Positions 14,427 through 22,109 of a DNA stretch of 53,638 nt are shown piece by piece. The DNA lies in IMG/VR virus record IMGVR_UViG_3300023174_000219, positions 1 through 53,638 of that record; one strand, written 5' to 3'. Both the position numbers and the translations under genes were made by a program. The stretch's first letter is position 1; each line of letters starts with the position of its first letter. The stretch comes from a virus. Its lineage: Duplodnaviria; Caudoviricetes. The notes below the pieces were generated by a model. That model saw only the letters and a program-made list of their open reading frames with translations. It was not told the origin of the DNA and ran no database searches.

Positions 14427-14499
14427 CTGGCCCACTAGGATTCGAACCTAGGACCTAGAAGTTAACAGCTTCCCGCTCTGCCTGCTGAGCTATGGGCCA
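14427..14499 (-). tRNA. tRNA-Asn(GTT)
   Basis: TGGCCCA/TGGGCCA acceptor, TAGCTCAG D arm, CTGTTAA anticodon loop, GGTTCGAATCC T arm; CCA not encoded. Confidence 0.95.
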
Positions 14500-15724: not shown

Positions 15725-15922
15725 TTATTCCTCCCCGCTAAAATCTTTTATTCTGTTACGAATAATCCATACGATAAAACCTATCATTATGACTTTTCCA
15801 ATAACTACCTTTGCTGACCCTGTAAGAACTAGCCATCCAGCAAATAGACCGATTAGCGTGTATATCTCATCAATTATATCAGAGATAGTTCCCTTGATAA
15901 TTCTCCAAAGATTGTTAATCAT
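15725..15922 (-). CDS. small 2-TM membrane protein
   Basis: YTLIGLFAGWLVLTGSAKVVIGKVIMIGFIVWII. Confidence 0.7.
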   Translation of the reverse strand: MINNLWRIIKGTISDIIDEIYTLIGLFAGWLVLTGSAKVVIGKVIMIGFIVWIIRNRIKDFSGEE

Positions 15923-18914
15923 TTCCGAACCTCCTTCTGAAAGCCACTATAGCTGCTGTAAGTACCAGCACCTTTTTAGCCTTCTTTCTTGTTACTGGAC
16001 TCATATCGTTTCCAATGTTAGCCATAGCAGCATATGCTGCCCCTACTGCCTGTATTGCCTCACCAGCGCCTGGAATGGCATCTAGGGCCGCTGGAAGAAA
16101 TGTACACTGCTCTATTGGGTGTTCATTACCATCTATATCTATATGAATTTCCTTATCGTTTCTAACTTCTGTTTTACATACGTATGTCATAAGTACTGGA
16201 ACCGCAATATCTGGTGAATTAAATGATGTTCCTCCAGGCTGTCCAATGAATGTATCTTGTGTTGTAATTGCTTCTGCAGGAATTGGAAGTCCAGATCCTG
16301 GAGGTGGAGGAGGAGGAGTTAATTTACCGTCTTCTCCTATAACTTGTGGAGCAGACTTTGTGCCAAAGAATTGAATTCCACCATTTTCAATACCTGGCTT
16401 ATCAACTTGAACTTTTGCAACTAAGTCTTGAGGATCTGGTAGCTTTGGCTTATCTGTTGGTAATTGATCTGGGTTATTTGACTTTACACCAATAGCATCT
16501 TCTAATTTCTTTGCTTCCGCCGCTTTTTCTGCAGCTATTTTAGATGCCTCTGCTTTAGCAGCATCTGATTTTGCTTGTGCATCTTTTGCTGCCTGAGCTG
16601 CCGCTTTTTCTTCTGCTAACTTGTTTGCTTGATCTTGTGCTTCTTTTGCTGCTGCATCCGCTGCTGCTTTATCCGCTGCTGCTTTATCCGCTGCTGCTTT
16701 ATCTGCTTCTGCCTGTGCAGCTGCTGCTGCTTCTGCAGCGGCTTTGTCTGCTTCTGCCTTTGCTGCAGCTTCGGCCTGTGCCTGTGCCTCTGCTTCTGCT
16801 TTTGCTGCAGCTTCCGCTGCTGCTTTATCTGCTTCTGCCTGTGCAGCTGCTGCTGCTTCTGCAGCGGCTTTGTCTGCTTCTGCCTTTGCTGCAGCTTCCG
16901 CTGCTGCTTTAGCTTCTGCTTCTGCTTTAGCCGCAGCTTCTGCGGCTACCTTAGCTTCCGCTTCTGCCTTTGCTGCAGCTTCCGCTGCTGCCTTAGCTTC
17001 TGCAGCGGCTTGAGCAGCTGCTTGTTCCGCTGCAGCTGCTGCTGCTTCTGCGGCTGCTTGTGCTGATGCAGCTGCAGCTGCCTGAGCTGCCGCTACTCTA
17101 GCAGACTCTTCTGCAGTTTTTTGTTCAATAATTGAAGTTAAATTAGATTGTATGCTTTCAATATTAGATGATTGTACAGTTACTGTTCCCACTGCTTGTG
17201 AGACTGCAACAAGGCTCTCTGTTTTTGTTTGCAATGTAGCTGTTGCTGTTTCTACTGTAGATGCATTAATAGCAAGGGTTGTGCTTGCTTGAGCCAATGT
17301 ATTAGAGGCTGAATTTAATGTGCTTGTCTGTAATGTAGTTTGTAATGGTCTTGGTGCAGTTACAGATACTGCATTATTAGCATTATTATTTGCCACCACA
17401 TTGGTTATGGCAGCATTTAATGTTGCAATTTGAGCATTGGCATTATCAATTGCTGTCTGAATTGCTGCTGTTGATGGATCTGGAGTAGGTGTAAAAGATG
17501 CACCCTGACTTAATGTTCCATTAAATCCAGGTCCTGAATTTGTATCTGCTATTGCAGTAACTGTGCCATTTGTGGTCTCTCTATAATTAAATCTTGCCCC
17601 ATTAGGAATTGGGCCAGTCACACTTACATCCGCCATCCAAGCACCATCTGCTGGATTAACATCAGCATTGAATCTAATTTGTGTCATTTGAGTTTCTGCG
17701 GTTGTAAGTGGATATACTCTAACATCCCACGCAACATTTAAAGTATTTGTAGTTGTTGAGTATGTAATACCAGATCCTGAAGACCAGGTGGTCCAGTCAT
17801 ATCCAGCAATAGAAATTGACGGGGCAGAAGGTGTTGAATAATAGTTTGATCCTTCATTAACTCCAAATGTTATTGTGCCGTTTGAACCAACATAGACATT
17901 TGTATAAACAGTATTTCCCATACGTAAATTAAATGGAAGATTCATTCTAACGCCAGCATCATCTACTCCAGCAAGTACGTTTGTTGATGCTCCAATTGTT
18001 GCTGCTAATGCATTAACCGCATCCTGAGCATTATTAATTGCAACGTTAGCTTCTGTTAATTGGGTTTGAGCATTTGTTCTAGCAGTAGATATTGCTGCTA
18101 CCGCAGTATTAGCATTTGTAATTGCTGTAGCAGTATTTGTTGCTGTAGCAGTAGCAGATTCAACTGCTGTATTTGCTGCAGTAATTGCAGTTTGAGCAGA
18201 CTCAACTGCTGTAGAAGCATTTGTAATTGTAGTATTTGCTGTTTCTATAGCTGCTTGAGCGGTTGCAACAGATGTCGATGCATCAGATACTACCTGTGAA
18301 ACTTGAGCAAGTGTGGTGGGGTCTGGATTTACTTGAGTTGCAACGCTAGAAATTATTGTAGCTGTAGAAGACTCAACTGCTGTTATCGCAGATGTAACTA
18401 CTGATTGAGCGGCATTTGCTGATTCTAATGTATTTGCATTTGTTACAGCAGTTTCTGCTGAATTTACTGCTTGAGTTGCTTGTGTAGCAGATTCAGTAAC
18501 TGTGGAGACTACTGGTGTTAAATTTGTAACTTGACTTACAGCAGTATTAACATTTGTTGTTGCTGTAGTTGCATCTGATACCGCAGTATTTGCTGTGGAC
18601 ACAGCTGTTGATGCTGCTTGAATTGCTGTATTTGCTGTTGCAACTGCAGTAGACTGTTGTTGAATAGCTGTGTTTGCTATTGCAACTGTTGCTGTTGCAG
18701 TATCTATTACTGCAGTTGTATTAATTGAAGCAGCAACAGCTTGGTTTACTTCAGATGTAGCTGTTGATAATGCTGTATTAACAGCCTGTTGTGCTGGGCT
18801 TACAACAACTTGTTCAACTGGTGCTGGATCATCTGCATACGCATAAGTTGGTCCAACAAAAAGCAACCAGCCCATAACAAATAGGCTGGCAAAAGTTAAT
18901 TTAATTCTAGTCAA
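15915..18914 (-). CDS. 999-aa secreted/membrane-tethered protein with Ala/Thr coiled coils, globular beta insert and TolA-like AEAAAK repeats
   Basis: AGGAG RBS + TTG; signal peptide to AYA; NVYVGSNGTITF (nidogen-like) segment; C-terminal KKAKKVLVLTAAIVAFRRR anchor-like. Confidence 0.85.
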   Translation of the reverse strand: MTRIKLTFASLFVMGWLLFVGPTYAYADDPAPVEQVVVSPAQQAVNTALSTATSEVNQAVAASINTTAVIDTATATVAIANTAIQQQSTAVATANTAIQAASTAVSTANTAVSDATTATTNVNTAVSQVTNLTPVVSTVTESATQATQAVNSAETAVTNANTLESANAAQSVVTSAITAVESSTATIISSVATQVNPDPTTLAQVSQVVSDASTSVATAQAAIETANTTITNASTAVESAQTAITAANTAVESATATATNTATAITNANTAVAAISTARTNAQTQLTEANVAINNAQDAVNALAATIGASTNVLAGVDDAGVRMNLPFNLRMGNTVYTNVYVGSNGTITFGVNEGSNYYSTPSAPSISIAGYDWTTWSSGSGITYSTTTNTLNVAWDVRVYPLTTAETQMTQIRFNADVNPADGAWMADVSVTGPIPNGARFNYRETTNGTVTAIADTNSGPGFNGTLSQGASFTPTPDPSTAAIQTAIDNANAQIATLNAAITNVVANNNANNAVSVTAPRPLQTTLQTSTLNSASNTLAQASTTLAINASTVETATATLQTKTESLVAVSQAVGTVTVQSSNIESIQSNLTSIIEQKTAEESARVAAAQAAAAASAQAAAEAAAAAAEQAAAQAAAEAKAAAEAAAKAEAEAKVAAEAAAKAEAEAKAAAEAAAKAEADKAAAEAAAAAQAEADKAAAEAAAKAEAEAQAQAEAAAKAEADKAAAEAAAAAQAEADKAAADKAAADKAAADAAAKEAQDQANKLAEEKAAAQAAKDAQAKSDAAKAEASKIAAEKAAEAKKLEDAIGVKSNNPDQLPTDKPKLPDPQDLVAKVQVDKPGIENGGIQFFGTKSAPQVIGEDGKLTPPPPPPGSGLPIPAEAITTQDTFIGQPGGTSFNSPDIAVPVLMTYVCKTEVRNDKEIHIDIDGNEHPIEQCTFLPAALDAIPGAGEAIQAVGAAYAAMANIGNDMSPVTRKKAKKVLVLTAAIVAFRRRFGND
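16657..16898. repeat. intragenic tandem and direct repeats
   Basis: 15-bp TCCGCTGCTGCTTTA x3 from 16657; 86-bp exact direct repeat 16687-16772 / 16813-16898. Confidence 0.85.
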
Positions 18915-18995: not shown

Positions 18996-19181
18996 CTATT
19001 TTGGGTTATCTGTTTTGTAAAAACCAGTACCGTTAAACTGTATTCCGAACGATCCGTAGTGTCTTGTAAGGTTTGCATTACACTTTTCACAGCCATAAGT
19101 TGGCTCATCTTCACTAATGCTACGCTCAAACTGTACAATGTCTTCTGGAGAACACTCACACTTATATTCGTAAATAGGCAT
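18996..19181 (-). CDS. FmdB family zinc-ribbon protein
   Basis: MPIYEYKCEC...CEKC...FNGTGFYKTD. Confidence 0.9.
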   Translation of the reverse strand: MPIYEYKCECSPEDIVQFERSISEDEPTYGCEKCNANLTRHYGSFGIQFNGTGFYKTDNPK

Positions 19182-19588
19182 TACTTACCGCTTTTCTTCC
19201 TCGCTTTTGCTAAGGCATCAAAGTCCTTGACCTTAGTATCTCCTAAATAACCCCATGCATATCCATCTTCAATCATCTTTTCATTCAATGATACTTTAGC
19301 ATCATCAAGGTAAACCCACCCTAAAATTCTTCCATACTTTTCTGAGCTGTCCATCTTTTCTGTCTTAATTACAACAGTCTTAGCAGCTTCAATTTCATGC
19401 TTCAGATAAGCTTTTGCCTCAAGCCCAAGAGCTTTCTCCATCTTATCTGCAGTTCTGCTTTCTGGTGTATCAATACCAGCTAAACGAACTCTAGAGCTAA
19501 ATGAGATATCAAATCCGAGATCAATATCTACATCAATTGTGTCTCCGTCCACAACTTTTGTAACCTTCTTTACATAATACTCAAACAT
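19181..19588 (-). CDS. thermonuclease (SNase-like) family nuclease
   Basis: KVVDGDTI...VRLAGIDTPE...KYGRILG; AAGGAG RBS before ATG 19588. Confidence 0.9.
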   Translation of the reverse strand: MFEYYVKKVTKVVDGDTIDVDIDLGFDISFSSRVRLAGIDTPESRTADKMEKALGLEAKAYLKHEIEAAKTVVIKTEKMDSSEKYGRILGWVYLDDAKVSLNEKMIEDGYAWGYLGDTKVKDFDALAKARKKSGK

Positions 19589-19592
19589 GATT

Positions 19593-19686
19593 CTCCTTAA
19601 TATTAAGGAGCAGTTTATCGACATGCTCAGGTCCATCCTCGGGTAGCGCCCGAATGGTCTGCGACTCCCCAGTGACGGGGTGCAGA
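19593..19686 (-). ncRNA. candidate structured cis-regulatory leader RNA
   Basis: Nested stems TCTGC/GCAGA, CCCC/GGGG, CCAT-TCGGG/CCCGA-ATGG, GAGCA/TGCTC and perfect palindrome CTCCTTAATATTAAGGAG over the RBS; -10 TATAAT at 19697-19692. Confidence 0.65.
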
Positions 19687-19701
19687 TCTTTATTATACTA
19701 T

Positions 19702-20121
19702 TTATTTTATCTTGATGGTCTTTGGCTTCTTTTCTTCAGGCACAATGCGCTCTACTAATACAGATAGCATACCATTCTTAAATTCAGCCGAAATTACTTC
19801 CATATACTCACCAAGCGCAAATGTGCGTGTGAATTTACGTGTAGCAATTCCCTTATGCAGTACTTCTTCTGTTGTTTCTGATCCAACTTCTCCCTTAATA
19901 ATCAGAGTTCCGTTATCTACAGATACATCTACGTCCTTCTTATCGAATCCAGCAACTGCTAGATCTACACGATACGAGTCTTCGTCAATCTTTACGATAT
20001 CGTAAGGTGGATATGATTGATGCACTGATGCATTATGAATTGAATTTAAGCGGTCCAATGTGTGATTGAAACCAATAAAAAATGGATCCTTAAAAAGATC
20101 CAATGTGTATGATGTTACCAT
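19702..20121 (-). CDS. Hsp20/IbpA-like small heat-shock protein
   Basis: YPPYDI...LAVAGF...HKGIATRKFTRTF.L...A.F.NGML. Confidence 0.95.
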   Translation of the reverse strand: MVTSYTLDLFKDPFFIGFNHTLDRLNSIHNASVHQSYPPYDIVKIDEDSYRVDLAVAGFDKKDVDVSVDNGTLIIKGEVGSETTEEVLHKGIATRKFTRTFALGEYMEVISAEFKNGMLSVLVERIVPEEKKPKTIKIK

Positions 20122-20196: not shown

Positions 20197-20940
20197 TTAT
20201 AAAAACTTAATAAGTTCTGCCCAAGTTTTTGGACCAATAATTCCGTTTGAATCTACTAAGTCATGATTATCTTGGAATGCAATTACAGCCTTCTTTGTTG
20301 CTGGGCCGTAATCTCCGTCTGCAAGTAGTCCGAGTGCCTTCTGTACTACCTTAACTCCCTCACCCTTAGCGCCAGGCTTAATCTGTCCTGGGAATGCTGG
20401 TGCTTCTGGTGCTGGAACTTTTGCTGTTACGTCGTTACCCTTATAATTTGGGCGACCCCATCCAACAATTGAAACCATAACTTTCTTTTTATTAGACTTA
20501 TATGCACGAACCTGCTCACAAACTTCTCCACCATTACGCTGTGATCCAGATTTCTTTGAAGATGTATTACCTTCTAGTGCTGTTACTGTTCCGTCTCCGT
20601 TATCTTTTACGCAAATTCCAACATGGGAAATTCTATCGACACCATCTCCTGGAAAATCAAAATAAAGAATATCTCCTGGCTGAGGAGCTGTTCCATTATC
20701 TGCCTCAAACCATGTGCCCATCTTTTTAAATGCTGCTGCTCCTGCAACAGTTGAAACTGTATTTGGAACCTTTACTCCAGCCTGATTAGCGCACCACATT
20801 ACATAGCTTCCGCACCATGGCAAAAAGTTAGCCTTTGTAAATGCACCGTATTTTGTTTCATTATCCTTCGGGCCTTCAATAACCCCTACTTCTTTATATG
20901 CAACTTCAATTATAGCTGCAGCTGTTCCTTTATCTGCCAT
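20197..20940 (-). CDS. endolysin: CHAP amidase domain plus peptidoglycan-binding domain
   Basis: PWCGSYV...PQPGDI...SHVGI...EGNT; C-terminal VQKALGLLADGDYGPATKKAVIAFQ...GIIGPKTW. Confidence 0.92.
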   Translation of the reverse strand: MADKGTAAAIIEVAYKEVGVIEGPKDNETKYGAFTKANFLPWCGSYVMWCANQAGVKVPNTVSTVAGAAAFKKMGTWFEADNGTAPQPGDILYFDFPGDGVDRISHVGICVKDNGDGTVTALEGNTSSKKSGSQRNGGEVCEQVRAYKSNKKKVMVSIVGWGRPNYKGNDVTAKVPAPEAPAFPGQIKPGAKGEGVKVVQKALGLLADGDYGPATKKAVIAFQDNHDLVDSNGIIGPKTWAELIKFL

Positions 20941-20941
20941 T

Positions 20942-21121
20942 TTATTCTCCTTTTAAAATTGATTTTTTAATTTTTTTATTATCCGCTTCAGATGCGTACA
21001 GTGCTCTCATGTGAGCAACTGCACGAGACTTGCTTGGATGGCACCCTACAAGCTCTCCTGTTTCTTTAACAACTGCGAATCCTTTACAGCCAGCAGCACC
21101 CTGCTTTACTTTCCAAGGCAT
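20942..21121 (-). CDS. 59-aa conserved phage peptide (not in ORF track)
   Basis: TAATG coupling; MPWKVKQGAAGCKGFAVVKETGELVGCHPSKSRAVAHMRALYASE. Confidence 0.7.
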   Translation of the reverse strand: MPWKVKQGAAGCKGFAVVKETGELVGCHPSKSRAVAHMRALYASEADNKKIKKSILKGE

Positions 21122-21576
21122 TAGAAATTCACCATGCTTTTAAGAGATGCTGTAATTTTCCATCTCCATTTTTCATGAGATGTAATTCTATCTGCAAAGA
21201 AGTTTGCAACTCCCTGCTCGTTTGCATCATTTGCAATTATAAATCCAGCCTTTAAATCTGTAATAATTTGCTCATTAGAAGAAAGCAATGACTGAAGCAT
21301 CTCAATAGGGCTTGTTACATTCATATCTAAATCATACTTAACATTAGATGTCTCATAAATCTTTACTGTATCAAACTCTGCCTTCCCGCCAAAAGATCTG
21401 ATCCATTCTGCAAACGTATCCACGGCTCCGTCTGCATCCTCGTAGATTTCCCCAAACATCTCATGAAACTGATCAAACAAGATGCCTTCCACATTCCAGT
21501 GGTATCCGTGTGCCTTTGTCCCATAAATAAATGAATTTGACTGAAGTACTCTTAGTGCTTGAATTAAAGATTCCAT
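21121..21576 (-). CDS. dps: Dps family ferritin-like protein
   Basis: KAHGYHWNVEG..F...HEMF.EIYE....AVDTFAE; HEKWRW; start ATG 21576. Confidence 0.92.
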   Translation of the reverse strand: MESLIQALRVLQSNSFIYGTKAHGYHWNVEGILFDQFHEMFGEIYEDADGAVDTFAEWIRSFGGKAEFDTVKIYETSNVKYDLDMNVTSPIEMLQSLLSSNEQIITDLKAGFIIANDANEQGVANFFADRITSHEKWRWKITASLKSMVNF

Positions 21577-21629: not shown

Positions 21630-21702
21630 CGCCCTCGGCAGGGATCGAACCTGCGACGCAGACCTTAGAAGAGTCTCGCTCTGTCCACTGAGCTACGAAG
21701 GC
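21630..21702 (-). tRNA. tRNA-Arg(TCT)
   Basis: GCCTTCG/CGAGGGC acceptor, CTTCTAA anticodon loop, GGTTCGATCCC T arm; CCA not encoded. Confidence 0.93.
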
Positions 21703-22034: not shown

Positions 22035-22109
22035 TGCAACAGGTAGGACTTGAACCTACGAATAACCGAATTATGAGTTCGGGGCCTTAACCAACTTGGC
22101 TACTGTTGC
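22035..22109 (-). tRNA. tRNA with CAT anticodon (elongator Met or Ile2)
   Basis: GCAACAG/CTGTTGC acceptor, CTCATAA loop, GGTTCAAGTCC T arm; paired 1:72 argues against initiator; promoter TTGACA-N18-TACAAT at 22148-22119. Confidence 0.9.

Follow-up and report, generated by a model that had tools for sequence, protein, structure and literature searches.

We examined a window of 53,638 bases of viral DNA (the whole of IMG/VR record IMGVR_UViG_3300023174_000219; about 38% G+C and about 50% complete by estimate), in which an initial annotation made from the letters alone had proposed a riboswitch-like leader that hides the ribosome-binding site of a phage nuclease gene. On the minus strand, to which all features below belong, an hsp20 gene (19702-20121; Pfam HSP20, E = 3.8e-19) is followed by a gap of 113 nt, a staphylococcal-nuclease (SNase)-like gene of 135 amino acids (19181-19588; Pfam SNase, E = 7.8e-18) and an FmdB-like zinc-ribbon gene of 61 amino acids (18996-19181), whose start overlaps the nuclease stop and whose match to Pfam Zn_ribbon_8 (E = 1.7e-6, 28.4 bits) lies under the curated 34.4. 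A protein search of viral contigs found 594 relatives of the nuclease. The best 80 of these 594, which were used for the leader analysis, all begin MFEY.. and set the nuclease start at the ATG at 19588-19586. A longer open reading frame (ORF) from an ATG inside the leader (19636-19634, GGAUGGAC) was rejected, as this start is not conserved and relatives show GGAUACAC, AAAUAGAC and similar sequences there. The 110-nt region upstream of the nuclease is a composite, modular 5' leader. Its last and best-conserved part is a small H-type pseudoknot (19608-19633), which recurs between genes in many unrelated phages.

The pseudoknot is a real structured RNA, strongly supported by covariation and by a covariance model, which scores the window copy at 42.4 bits (E = 7.5e-11). 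Stem 1 (S1) pairs GAC (19633-19631) with GUC (19622-19620), and stem 2 (S2) pairs GAGCA (19628-19624) with UGCUC (19612-19608). The loops are CU (loop 1, 19630-19629), U (loop 2, 19623) and GAUAAAC (loop 3, 19619-19613). The motif measures about 32 nt and follows the core pattern stem-CUGAGYA-N-stem-N2-6-AAACUGCUC: a freely covarying stem 1 closed by C-G, the 2-nt loop CU, a near-invariant stem 2 of GAGYA and UGCUC, and a loop ending in AAAC, with about 16 near-invariant nucleotides altogether. In an alignment of 131 distinct 34-nt copies, the S1 column pair 6-19 is GC in 63, AU in 25, CG in 25, UA in 17 and other in 1, and the column pair 7-18 is AU in 70, UA in 51, CG in 7, GC in 1 and other in 2, and 127 copies have C-G as the closing pair. 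S1 reaches a covariation score of 0.382 versus 0.122 ± 0.009 for shuffles (reached by none of 500), and controls with the pairing slid along the alignment stay at or below 0.10. This helix, which the initial annotation mentioned as a possible 3-bp GAC/GTC pseudoknot, is the best supported of all.

Because the search pattern fixes stem 2 in the 131-copy set, a fuzzy search allowing up to two substitutions was run over 1.43 Mb of loci. It returned 195 sites, 23 of them with substitutions, among which 17 carry two. Nine of these 17 belong to a concerted subtype described below; the remaining eight are all compensatory in S2, in support of the GAGCA/UGCUC stem drawn earlier, which changes to AAGCA/UGCUU (G-C to A-U) at three sites, to GGGUA/UGCCC (A-U to G-C) at four and to UAGCA/UGCUA (G-C to U-A) at one. 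Two further cases, GGGCA/UGCCC (A-U to G-C), occur among leader contexts that carry a second conserved element, hairpin 1. Single changes in S2 yield G.U or convert U.G to U-A. The G.U wobbles, together with the strand bias of the flanking genes (same versus opposite strand: 132 versus 9 upstream, 111 versus 6 downstream), show that the structure functions as RNA and on the strand of the genes. A reading of the conserved blocks as a sigma-54 or other promoter was rejected, since both helices covary or compensate and the U.G wobbles fit only the gene strand as RNA. We take stem 2 to resemble a permuted tRNA D-stem (GCUC/GAGC).

When viral contigs were scanned with the pattern, the core was found in at least 120 stretches, and further copies exist; the site counts given here rest on at least 176 distinct sites over all loci retrieved. 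The covariance model found 7, 6, 8, 5 and 2 copies in five other viral records. The motif lies outside same-strand ORFs at 170 of the 176 listed sites. It stands shortly after stop codons (nearest upstream stop at a median of 39 nt, lower quartile 9 nt, and within 30 nt at 77 of 165 listed sites) and is followed by a ribosome-binding site, a tRNA gene, a promoter or a U-tract. At 46 of 149 listed sites the next start is no more than 30 nt downstream, many sites are 5-25 nt before a ribosome-binding site, and at 14 listed sites a tRNA gene begins 4-13 nt downstream. Convergent (4) and divergent (6) gene pairs are too few to separate a 3' from a 5' role. The downstream neighbours are varied and include primase/helicase, clamp loader, thymidylate synthase, PhoH, endonuclease and scaffold genes; upstream, a family of unknown function accounts for 16 of 76 neighbours and Hsp20 for 7 of 76, followed by others. 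The pseudoknot is not specific to the nuclease; it is probably an RNA device used at gene boundaries in general. This speaks against the aptamer dedicated to the nuclease that was first proposed, as the same pseudoknot occurs at these 176 or more sites beside diverse genes and 36 of the 80 related nuclease genes are leaderless.

The copies vary in several ways. Loop 2 can be any base in the 131-copy alignment and accommodates an inserted hairpin in locus L157 (6632-6670). The concerted subtype ends in AAAAGGCUC where the main form has AAACUGCUC; two adjacent positions change together and A.G replaces A-U (nine sites, for example L126 at 3328 and 3678, L022 at 3436 and L066 at 3464). A 6-bp stem 1 (AUAGAC/GUCUAU) is combined with a longer loop, CUGAGCAGUC, in another variant (L084, L087, L136, L149, L159, L184 and L193), which is preceded by a conserved, structured-looking region of 60 nt and followed by a -10-like TATGCTATAAT. 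Directly after UGCUC, A is found at 111 of the 176 listed sites, ACC at 24, ACCA at 14 and UUU at 13; the last count led us to reject a boxA/nut-like site, which we take to be UGCUCUUUA. A sigma-70-like promoter and an operator-like palindrome follow the pseudoknot in L157, L128 and L133. In the multi-copy phages a palindrome of this kind, TGTGATC..GATCACA, recurs beside TTGACA/-10 promoters downstream of copies in L157 (4397-4412 and 6716-6731) and in the flanks of L172 and L089. Tandem TTATCCACA-like words, presumably DnaA-box-like, occur in intergenic regions just downstream of copies near promoter-like sequence in L157 (6690-6712), L091, L096 and L108.

Upstream of the pseudoknot, the leader carries a -10-like element and two hairpins. 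The GC-rich island noted in the initial annotation is present (G+C of 0.563 in 19620-19699 versus 0.33-0.41 in the flanks), and region 19580-19690 folds with a minimum free energy (MFE) of -36.2 kcal/mol (z = -2.10; equalled by 4 of 200 shuffles). The -10-like element TAGTATAAT (19692-19700), which contains the TATAAT reported at 19697-19692, is a putative promoter of the leader transcript. In relatives TAGTATAAT, or in a few GGTATAAT or GATATAAT, lies 5-6 nt 5' of hairpin 1 or its replacement, and 84 distinct contexts retain the element ahead of hairpin 1, no matter what gene is upstream. A sigma-70 promoter scan of the window left the TATAAT unflagged because there is no -35 match. Hairpin 1 (19658-19686; UCUGC-A-CCCC-GUCACU-GGGG-AGUC-GCAGA) lies at or beside the predicted 5' end of the leader RNA and contains a bulged A and an internal loop, AGUC, both missing from the earlier fold, whereas hairpin 2 (19633-19657; CCAUUCGGGCGCUACCCGAGGAUGG, that is, CCAUUCGGG-CGCUA-CCCGAGGAUGG) is exactly as drawn there. 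Hairpin 1 is unchanged in 61 of 61 aligned leaders, so covariation neither supports nor opposes it. Hairpin 2 has a variable stem and a conserved YUAC loop edge; in the same 61 leaders, 90.8% of its alignment cells are paired and one pair clearly covaries (columns 48-63: UA 35, GC 14, AU 2, GU 1). Its stems in relatives also read GGGCA/UGCCC, UGGG/CCCA and UUGAGC/GCUCAA.

The 27-nt core of hairpin 1 occurs once in the window, and in viral contigs the pseudoknot follows hairpin 1 in all 84 distinct contexts. This confines hairpins 1 and 2 to the leader family of the nuclease and zinc-ribbon genes. The leader with its pseudoknot is present at 44 of the 80 nuclease loci; at the other 36 it is absent because another ORF directly precedes the gene. 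Some relatives replace or lack hairpins 1 and 2 yet retain the pseudoknot, and in several the pseudoknot lies 7-10 nt after the hsp20 stop with no promoter box. A zinc-ribbon gene follows the SNase gene at 36 of 39 leader-bearing loci versus 14 of 35 leaderless ones, an association that is weak evidence because the loci are related and the counts are not independent. In some contigs the leader directly precedes the zinc-ribbon gene. Short intergenic modules repeated within one phage genome are known from the T4-type promoter-early stem-loops and the start-associated sequences of cluster K mycobacteriophages. Like these, the unit of promoter, hairpin 1 and hairpin 2 behaves as a cassette, here inserted upstream of the pseudoknot. 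The pseudoknot itself differs from such lineage-restricted sequence repeats in having covarying helices and in crossing phage lineages. An optional module, GUCGGGGGAGACAGCGAC..UAAAUAACUG, which resembles a second hairpin-plus-tail unit, separates hairpin 2 from the pseudoknot or takes the place of hairpin 2 in L017, L110, L327, L339, L345, L346 and others.

At its 3' end the pseudoknot meets a perfect 18-nt palindrome, CUCCUUAAUAUUAAGGAG (19593-19610), which covers the Shine-Dalgarno (SD) sequence AAGGAG of the nuclease gene (19598-19593). Both the palindrome and its competition with the pseudoknot had been predicted, and both stand: CUC (19610-19608) is common to S2 and the anti-SD arm, and the pseudoknot and the full SD hairpin are therefore mutually exclusive. 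The calculated energies are -7.0 kcal/mol for the 7-bp SD hairpin, -5.4 kcal/mol for the stem-2 duplex and -2.3 kcal/mol for stem 1 alone, and masking of the SD at the nuclease gene is energetically plausible. At least three SD-core bases pair with the CUGCUC region in the MFE folds of 58 of 70 SNase leaders, compared with just 22 of 57 non-nuclease sites. Given this difference and the shared CUC, it is a reasonable, unproven proposal that the folded pseudoknot keeps the nuclease ribosome-binding site open. The palindrome is paired in 84.5% of alignment cells, a value also obtained with shuffled alignments (84.5%, reached by 285 of 500). The check for stem covariation among homologs that came with the initial annotation thus favours S1, S2 and one pair of hairpin 2, is uninformative for the invariant hairpin 1 and gives the anti-SD hairpin no support.

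The motif appears to be a new RNA class within the cis-acting phage pseudoknots. A search of the whole window against Rfam 15 at the gathering threshold returned three tRNAs and nothing else; region 19400-19900, searched at E up to 10, gave just a mir-5470 noise match (E = 7.3), in line with the initial annotation, which did not recognise the aptamer as a known riboswitch class; and eight other multi-copy loci, searched at E up to 0.1, gave two tRNAs and nothing else. The motif was not found in the full-text literature searched, although a bulk catalogue of IMG/VR candidate RNAs, accessible in part, may contain it (PMC10690425). The accessible part of a preprint on coevolutionary mining does not describe it.

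We favour, with a probability of about 35%, the reading that the motif is a compact, triplex-type boundary or insulator RNA that acts independently of a ligand. Compact triplex pseudoknots are mechanically strong for their size, and it is this strength of the fold, combined with the placement at gene boundaries, that puts the boundary or insulator reading first. The luteovirus frameshift pseudoknots of the beet western yellows virus (BWYV) type are very small; their loop 1 has 2 nt, an A-rich loop occupies the minor groove and conservation centres on the helix junction. The motif resembles them in size, in its 2-nt loop 1, in its A-rich loop and in its junction conservation. By analogy, stem 2 may hold CU in its deep groove, and stem 1 the adenines of AAAC in its minor groove. 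The invariant letters (the closing C-G, CU, stem 2 and AAAC) all surround the helix junction, which fits such a triplex. Unlike frameshift pseudoknots, the motif stands after stop codons, often tandem ones, and not 5-9 nt past a slippery site within an ORF. A role as a read-through or frameshift stimulator was rejected on the same grounds of tandem stops and with no extended frame through the motif. Pseudoknot 'ribosomal roadblocks' are reportedly a comparable system.

As a boundary element, a mechanically robust motif between genes would define and protect the ends of RNA segments. It could be a barrier to exonucleases, ribosomes or helicases, sometimes associated with a terminator or joined to a U-tract, and could isolate the next ribosome-binding site from upstream sequence. 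In the window, the -10-like box would launch a leader transcript that starts with hairpin 1 and continues with hairpin 2. Holding CUC in stem 2 would then block the full anti-SD/SD hairpin and leave the nuclease ribosome-binding site accessible, and unfolding of the pseudoknot would let the SD hairpin close.

Several observations weigh against this reading. Its main weakness is that a simple barrier hardly needs about 16 fixed nucleotides; such conservation is more typical of ribozymes, aptamers and sites for specific partners, and four rival explanations are retained for this reason. The conservation seen in the 131-copy alignment is itself partly circular, since the pattern used to collect most copies already prescribes the conserved letters; support that does not depend on this pattern is given by the protein-anchored set (44 of 80 loci) and by the fuzzy and covariance-model searches. 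No covariation is seen in the anti-SD hairpin, and 25 of 61 leaders have a mismatch at its fourth pair, so that the expression platform of the initial annotation gains no evolutionary support; the pairing of the SD with the CUGCUC region is found at a minority of the non-nuclease sites. Seven freshwater metatranscriptome data sets with a small share of the sequence were found, and four were compared with the region; their Logan contigs, derived from relatives, cover the leader and give no usable joint, start or end of the RNA: apparent stops near 19605-19608 are loose-ended or come from diverged relatives, and the depth over the leader is uneven and uninterpretable. Finally, the window holds a single copy; the covariance model found no second one there, the next best score being 7.1 bits.

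An unlikely reading is that the pseudoknot is an RNA-processing site. It would be cleaved by its own activity, as a new minimal ribozyme, or by RNase P, for which it would mimic a tRNA acceptor arm, the cut falling between U and G of loop 1. Cleavage would split polycistronic phage transcripts and free the downstream tRNAs and mRNAs. A conserved core with variable helices and optional insertions, present in multiple intergenic copies across hosts, points to an intrinsic activity or a universal partner, and 14 of the listed sites abut tRNA genes as noted above. The topology matches acceptor pseudoknots of the turnip yellow mosaic virus type. Like tRNA-like acceptor-arm pseudoknots and the model substrates of RNase P, the motif is H-type, and its 3' strand pairs with a hairpin loop and is then followed by A (the 111 listed sites above), at times by ACC or ACCA; it also shares with the RNase P substrates a U before the first G-C pair of stem 2 and a single-stranded loop 1 before the acceptor-like helix. 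Unlike tRNA-like structures, it is internal to transcripts and has no T-loop mimic, and RCCA is found at 24 of the 176 listed sites, the window not among them.

The accessible part of one report describes cleavage of a small H-type pseudoknot in loop 1 by bacterial RNase P RNA in vitro and states that this cleavage required a 3' RCCA (PMC12710915). In the motif, the ACC count of just 24 of 176 listed sites tells against such cleavage, and CUU comes after the window copy. Stacked, the helices comprise 8-11 bp, versus 12 in tRNA. The motif matches no ribozyme family in Rfam, including the known self-cleaving hammerhead, twister, twister-sister, pistol, hatchet and hepatitis delta virus-like ribozymes. 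CUGAGYA presumably departs from the hammerhead CUGANGA at the essential G8, and to our knowledge 32 nt is below the size of natural self-cleavers. An RNA-library contig crosses the motif uncut, though it may represent DNA or an uncleaved precursor. The broader form of the processing reading, in which CUGAGYA...AAACUGCUC would be an unrecognised, widespread and autonomous phage device of about 32 nt, either a minimal ribozyme or an RNase-P-recruiting mimic of a tRNA acceptor arm, punctuating the polycistronic transcripts of phages from several bacterial phyla, is just as doubtful as the narrower one.

We consider it improbable that the motif is an operator at many transcripts for one specific RNA-binding protein, such as a repressor similar to T4 RegA or gp32, or a host factor. 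Hairpin 1 would then be an additional operator of the leader only, to which the zinc-ribbon protein encoded alongside might bind. The sequence conservation of the loops and stem 2, the strict invariance of hairpin 1, the many sites 5-25 nt before a ribosome-binding site, the early and replication genes among the neighbours and the association of the leader with the zinc-ribbon gene are all consistent with an operator. The T4 gene 32 autoregulatory leader is, according to the accessible part of the source, a pseudoknot upstream of a ribosome-binding site (PMC10690425). The motif is likewise a phage 5'-leader pseudoknot before a ribosome-binding site; unlike the gene 32 leader, which belongs to a single gene and nucleates binding of its own product, it is dispersed over many genes and phages. 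These phages are of very different hosts and types with no common candidate protein identified, the motif also precedes tRNAs, promoters and U-tracts, and some genomes hold a single copy, all of which argue against an operator.

The odds are poor for a translational ON switch that senses a ligand, a protein or temperature, in which a ligand-stabilised pseudoknot would free the nuclease SD. The mutually exclusive pseudoknot and SD hairpin have similar energies, the conserved core is compatible with a binding pocket, and the invariant hairpin 1 could be a protein site in a leader that tends to co-occur with the zinc-ribbon gene, although that association comes from related loci and not from independent counts. 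The motif is also similar in size and architecture to the aptamer of preQ1-I, which folds as an H-type pseudoknot of some 34 nt next to the ribosome-binding site; loop 1 of that aptamer is short, its 3' loop is rich in A, and its 3' strand extends over translation signals. Like preQ1-I (RF00522), the motif is a small H-type pseudoknot whose A-rich 3' loop adjoins a ribosome-binding site. It has no RF00522 match at E up to 10, nor a match to any other Rfam riboswitch; its loop 2 is not conserved and accepts any base, whereas loop 2 of preQ1-I holds the C that pairs with the ligand; and its pseudoknot would open the SD, not hide it. Its neighbours are diverse, with no link to queuosine or preQ1 genes, and it occurs in up to eight copies per record beside unrelated genes, tRNAs and promoters. 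The motif has neither the coherent gene set nor the conserved expression platform by which riboswitches are generally recognised, the platform at the nuclease being free of covariation. A metabolite riboswitch that times expression of the nuclease, as first inferred, is therefore unlikely, since a ligand-specific riboswitch is not distributed in many copies beside diverse genes, tRNAs and promoters.

Least probable is an unusual intrinsic terminator or attenuator with the pseudoknot in place of the terminator hairpin. In its favour, a U-rich tract directly follows the motif at 24 of 174 listed sites versus 6 of 657 control positions, U-tracts also come after copies in a Saccharibacteria metagenome-assembled genome (MAG) and in Lactobacillus phages, and the motif often lies just after stops and before the next promoter. 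Against it, 150 of the 174 listed sites have no such tract, among them the window copy, where CUUAAUAU comes after UGCUC; where tRNA genes and ribosome-binding sites come next, no promoter stands in between; termination would be counter-productive just before the scaffold and capsid genes of the Lactobacillus phages, and the hairpins of terminators are not normally conserved in sequence.

The near-invariant nucleotides, kept over diverse phages, point to a specific and portable RNA function. Be it barrier, processing signal, terminator variant or aptamer, the motif would add a new class to the gene-expression signals of phages. Synthetic biology might make use of it as a compact part, and it can be tested directly in cultivable Lactobacillus phages. 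For the window, the annotation shifts from a 'nuclease riboswitch' to a composite leader in which private 5' hairpins are joined to a generic boundary pseudoknot.

The large terminase of the window phage shares 64% identity with the terminases of large Streptomyces siphophages. DNA similarity to cultured phages around the locus is limited to short matches within the nuclease gene, and no motif copies were found in the Streptomyces phages NootNoot and Gilson, close cultured relatives by the terminase or a neighbouring gene, nor in Pseudomonas phage PA5oct. Carriers include further freshwater relatives of actinophages and a contig one of whose genes has homologs in many T4-type and jumbo phages. 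Among cultured phages, the Lactobacillus phages AQ113, Lj771, KC5a and phi jlb1 and L. helveticus phages carry the motif region at the head scaffolding gene; AQ113 and Lj771 were confirmed to have one copy each, 60-70 nt upstream of this gene. A scan of bacterial and archaeal genomes, with a pattern that allowed an 8-11-nt gap and so misses the main 7-nt class, gave at least 89 matches; stem 1 has 4 bp or more in 25 of the 89 matches listed, and many are probably due to chance. The matches in Saccharibacteria, Methanobrevibacter, Bacteroidota and Proteobacteria are leads from MAG bins and carry no claim of host range. The ORFs beside the Methanobrevibacter copy are uninformative, and the Saccharibacteria MAG has two copies after ORF ends, each followed by U6-7.

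Other genes of the window surround the locus. The three tRNA genes (14427-14499, 21630-21702 and 22035-22109) are all on the minus strand. Upstream of hsp20 lie a Dps/ferritin-like gene (21121-21576) and a lysin gene with CHAP and peptidoglycan-binding domains (20197-20940). Directly downstream of the nuclease/zinc-ribbon pair is an ORF of 999 amino acids (15915-18914, minus strand) with a signal-peptide-like N-terminus, long Ala/Thr/Gln-rich and AEAKA-type repeats and a hydrophobic C-terminal anchor; a terminator-like hairpin (18890-18866) lies near its end.

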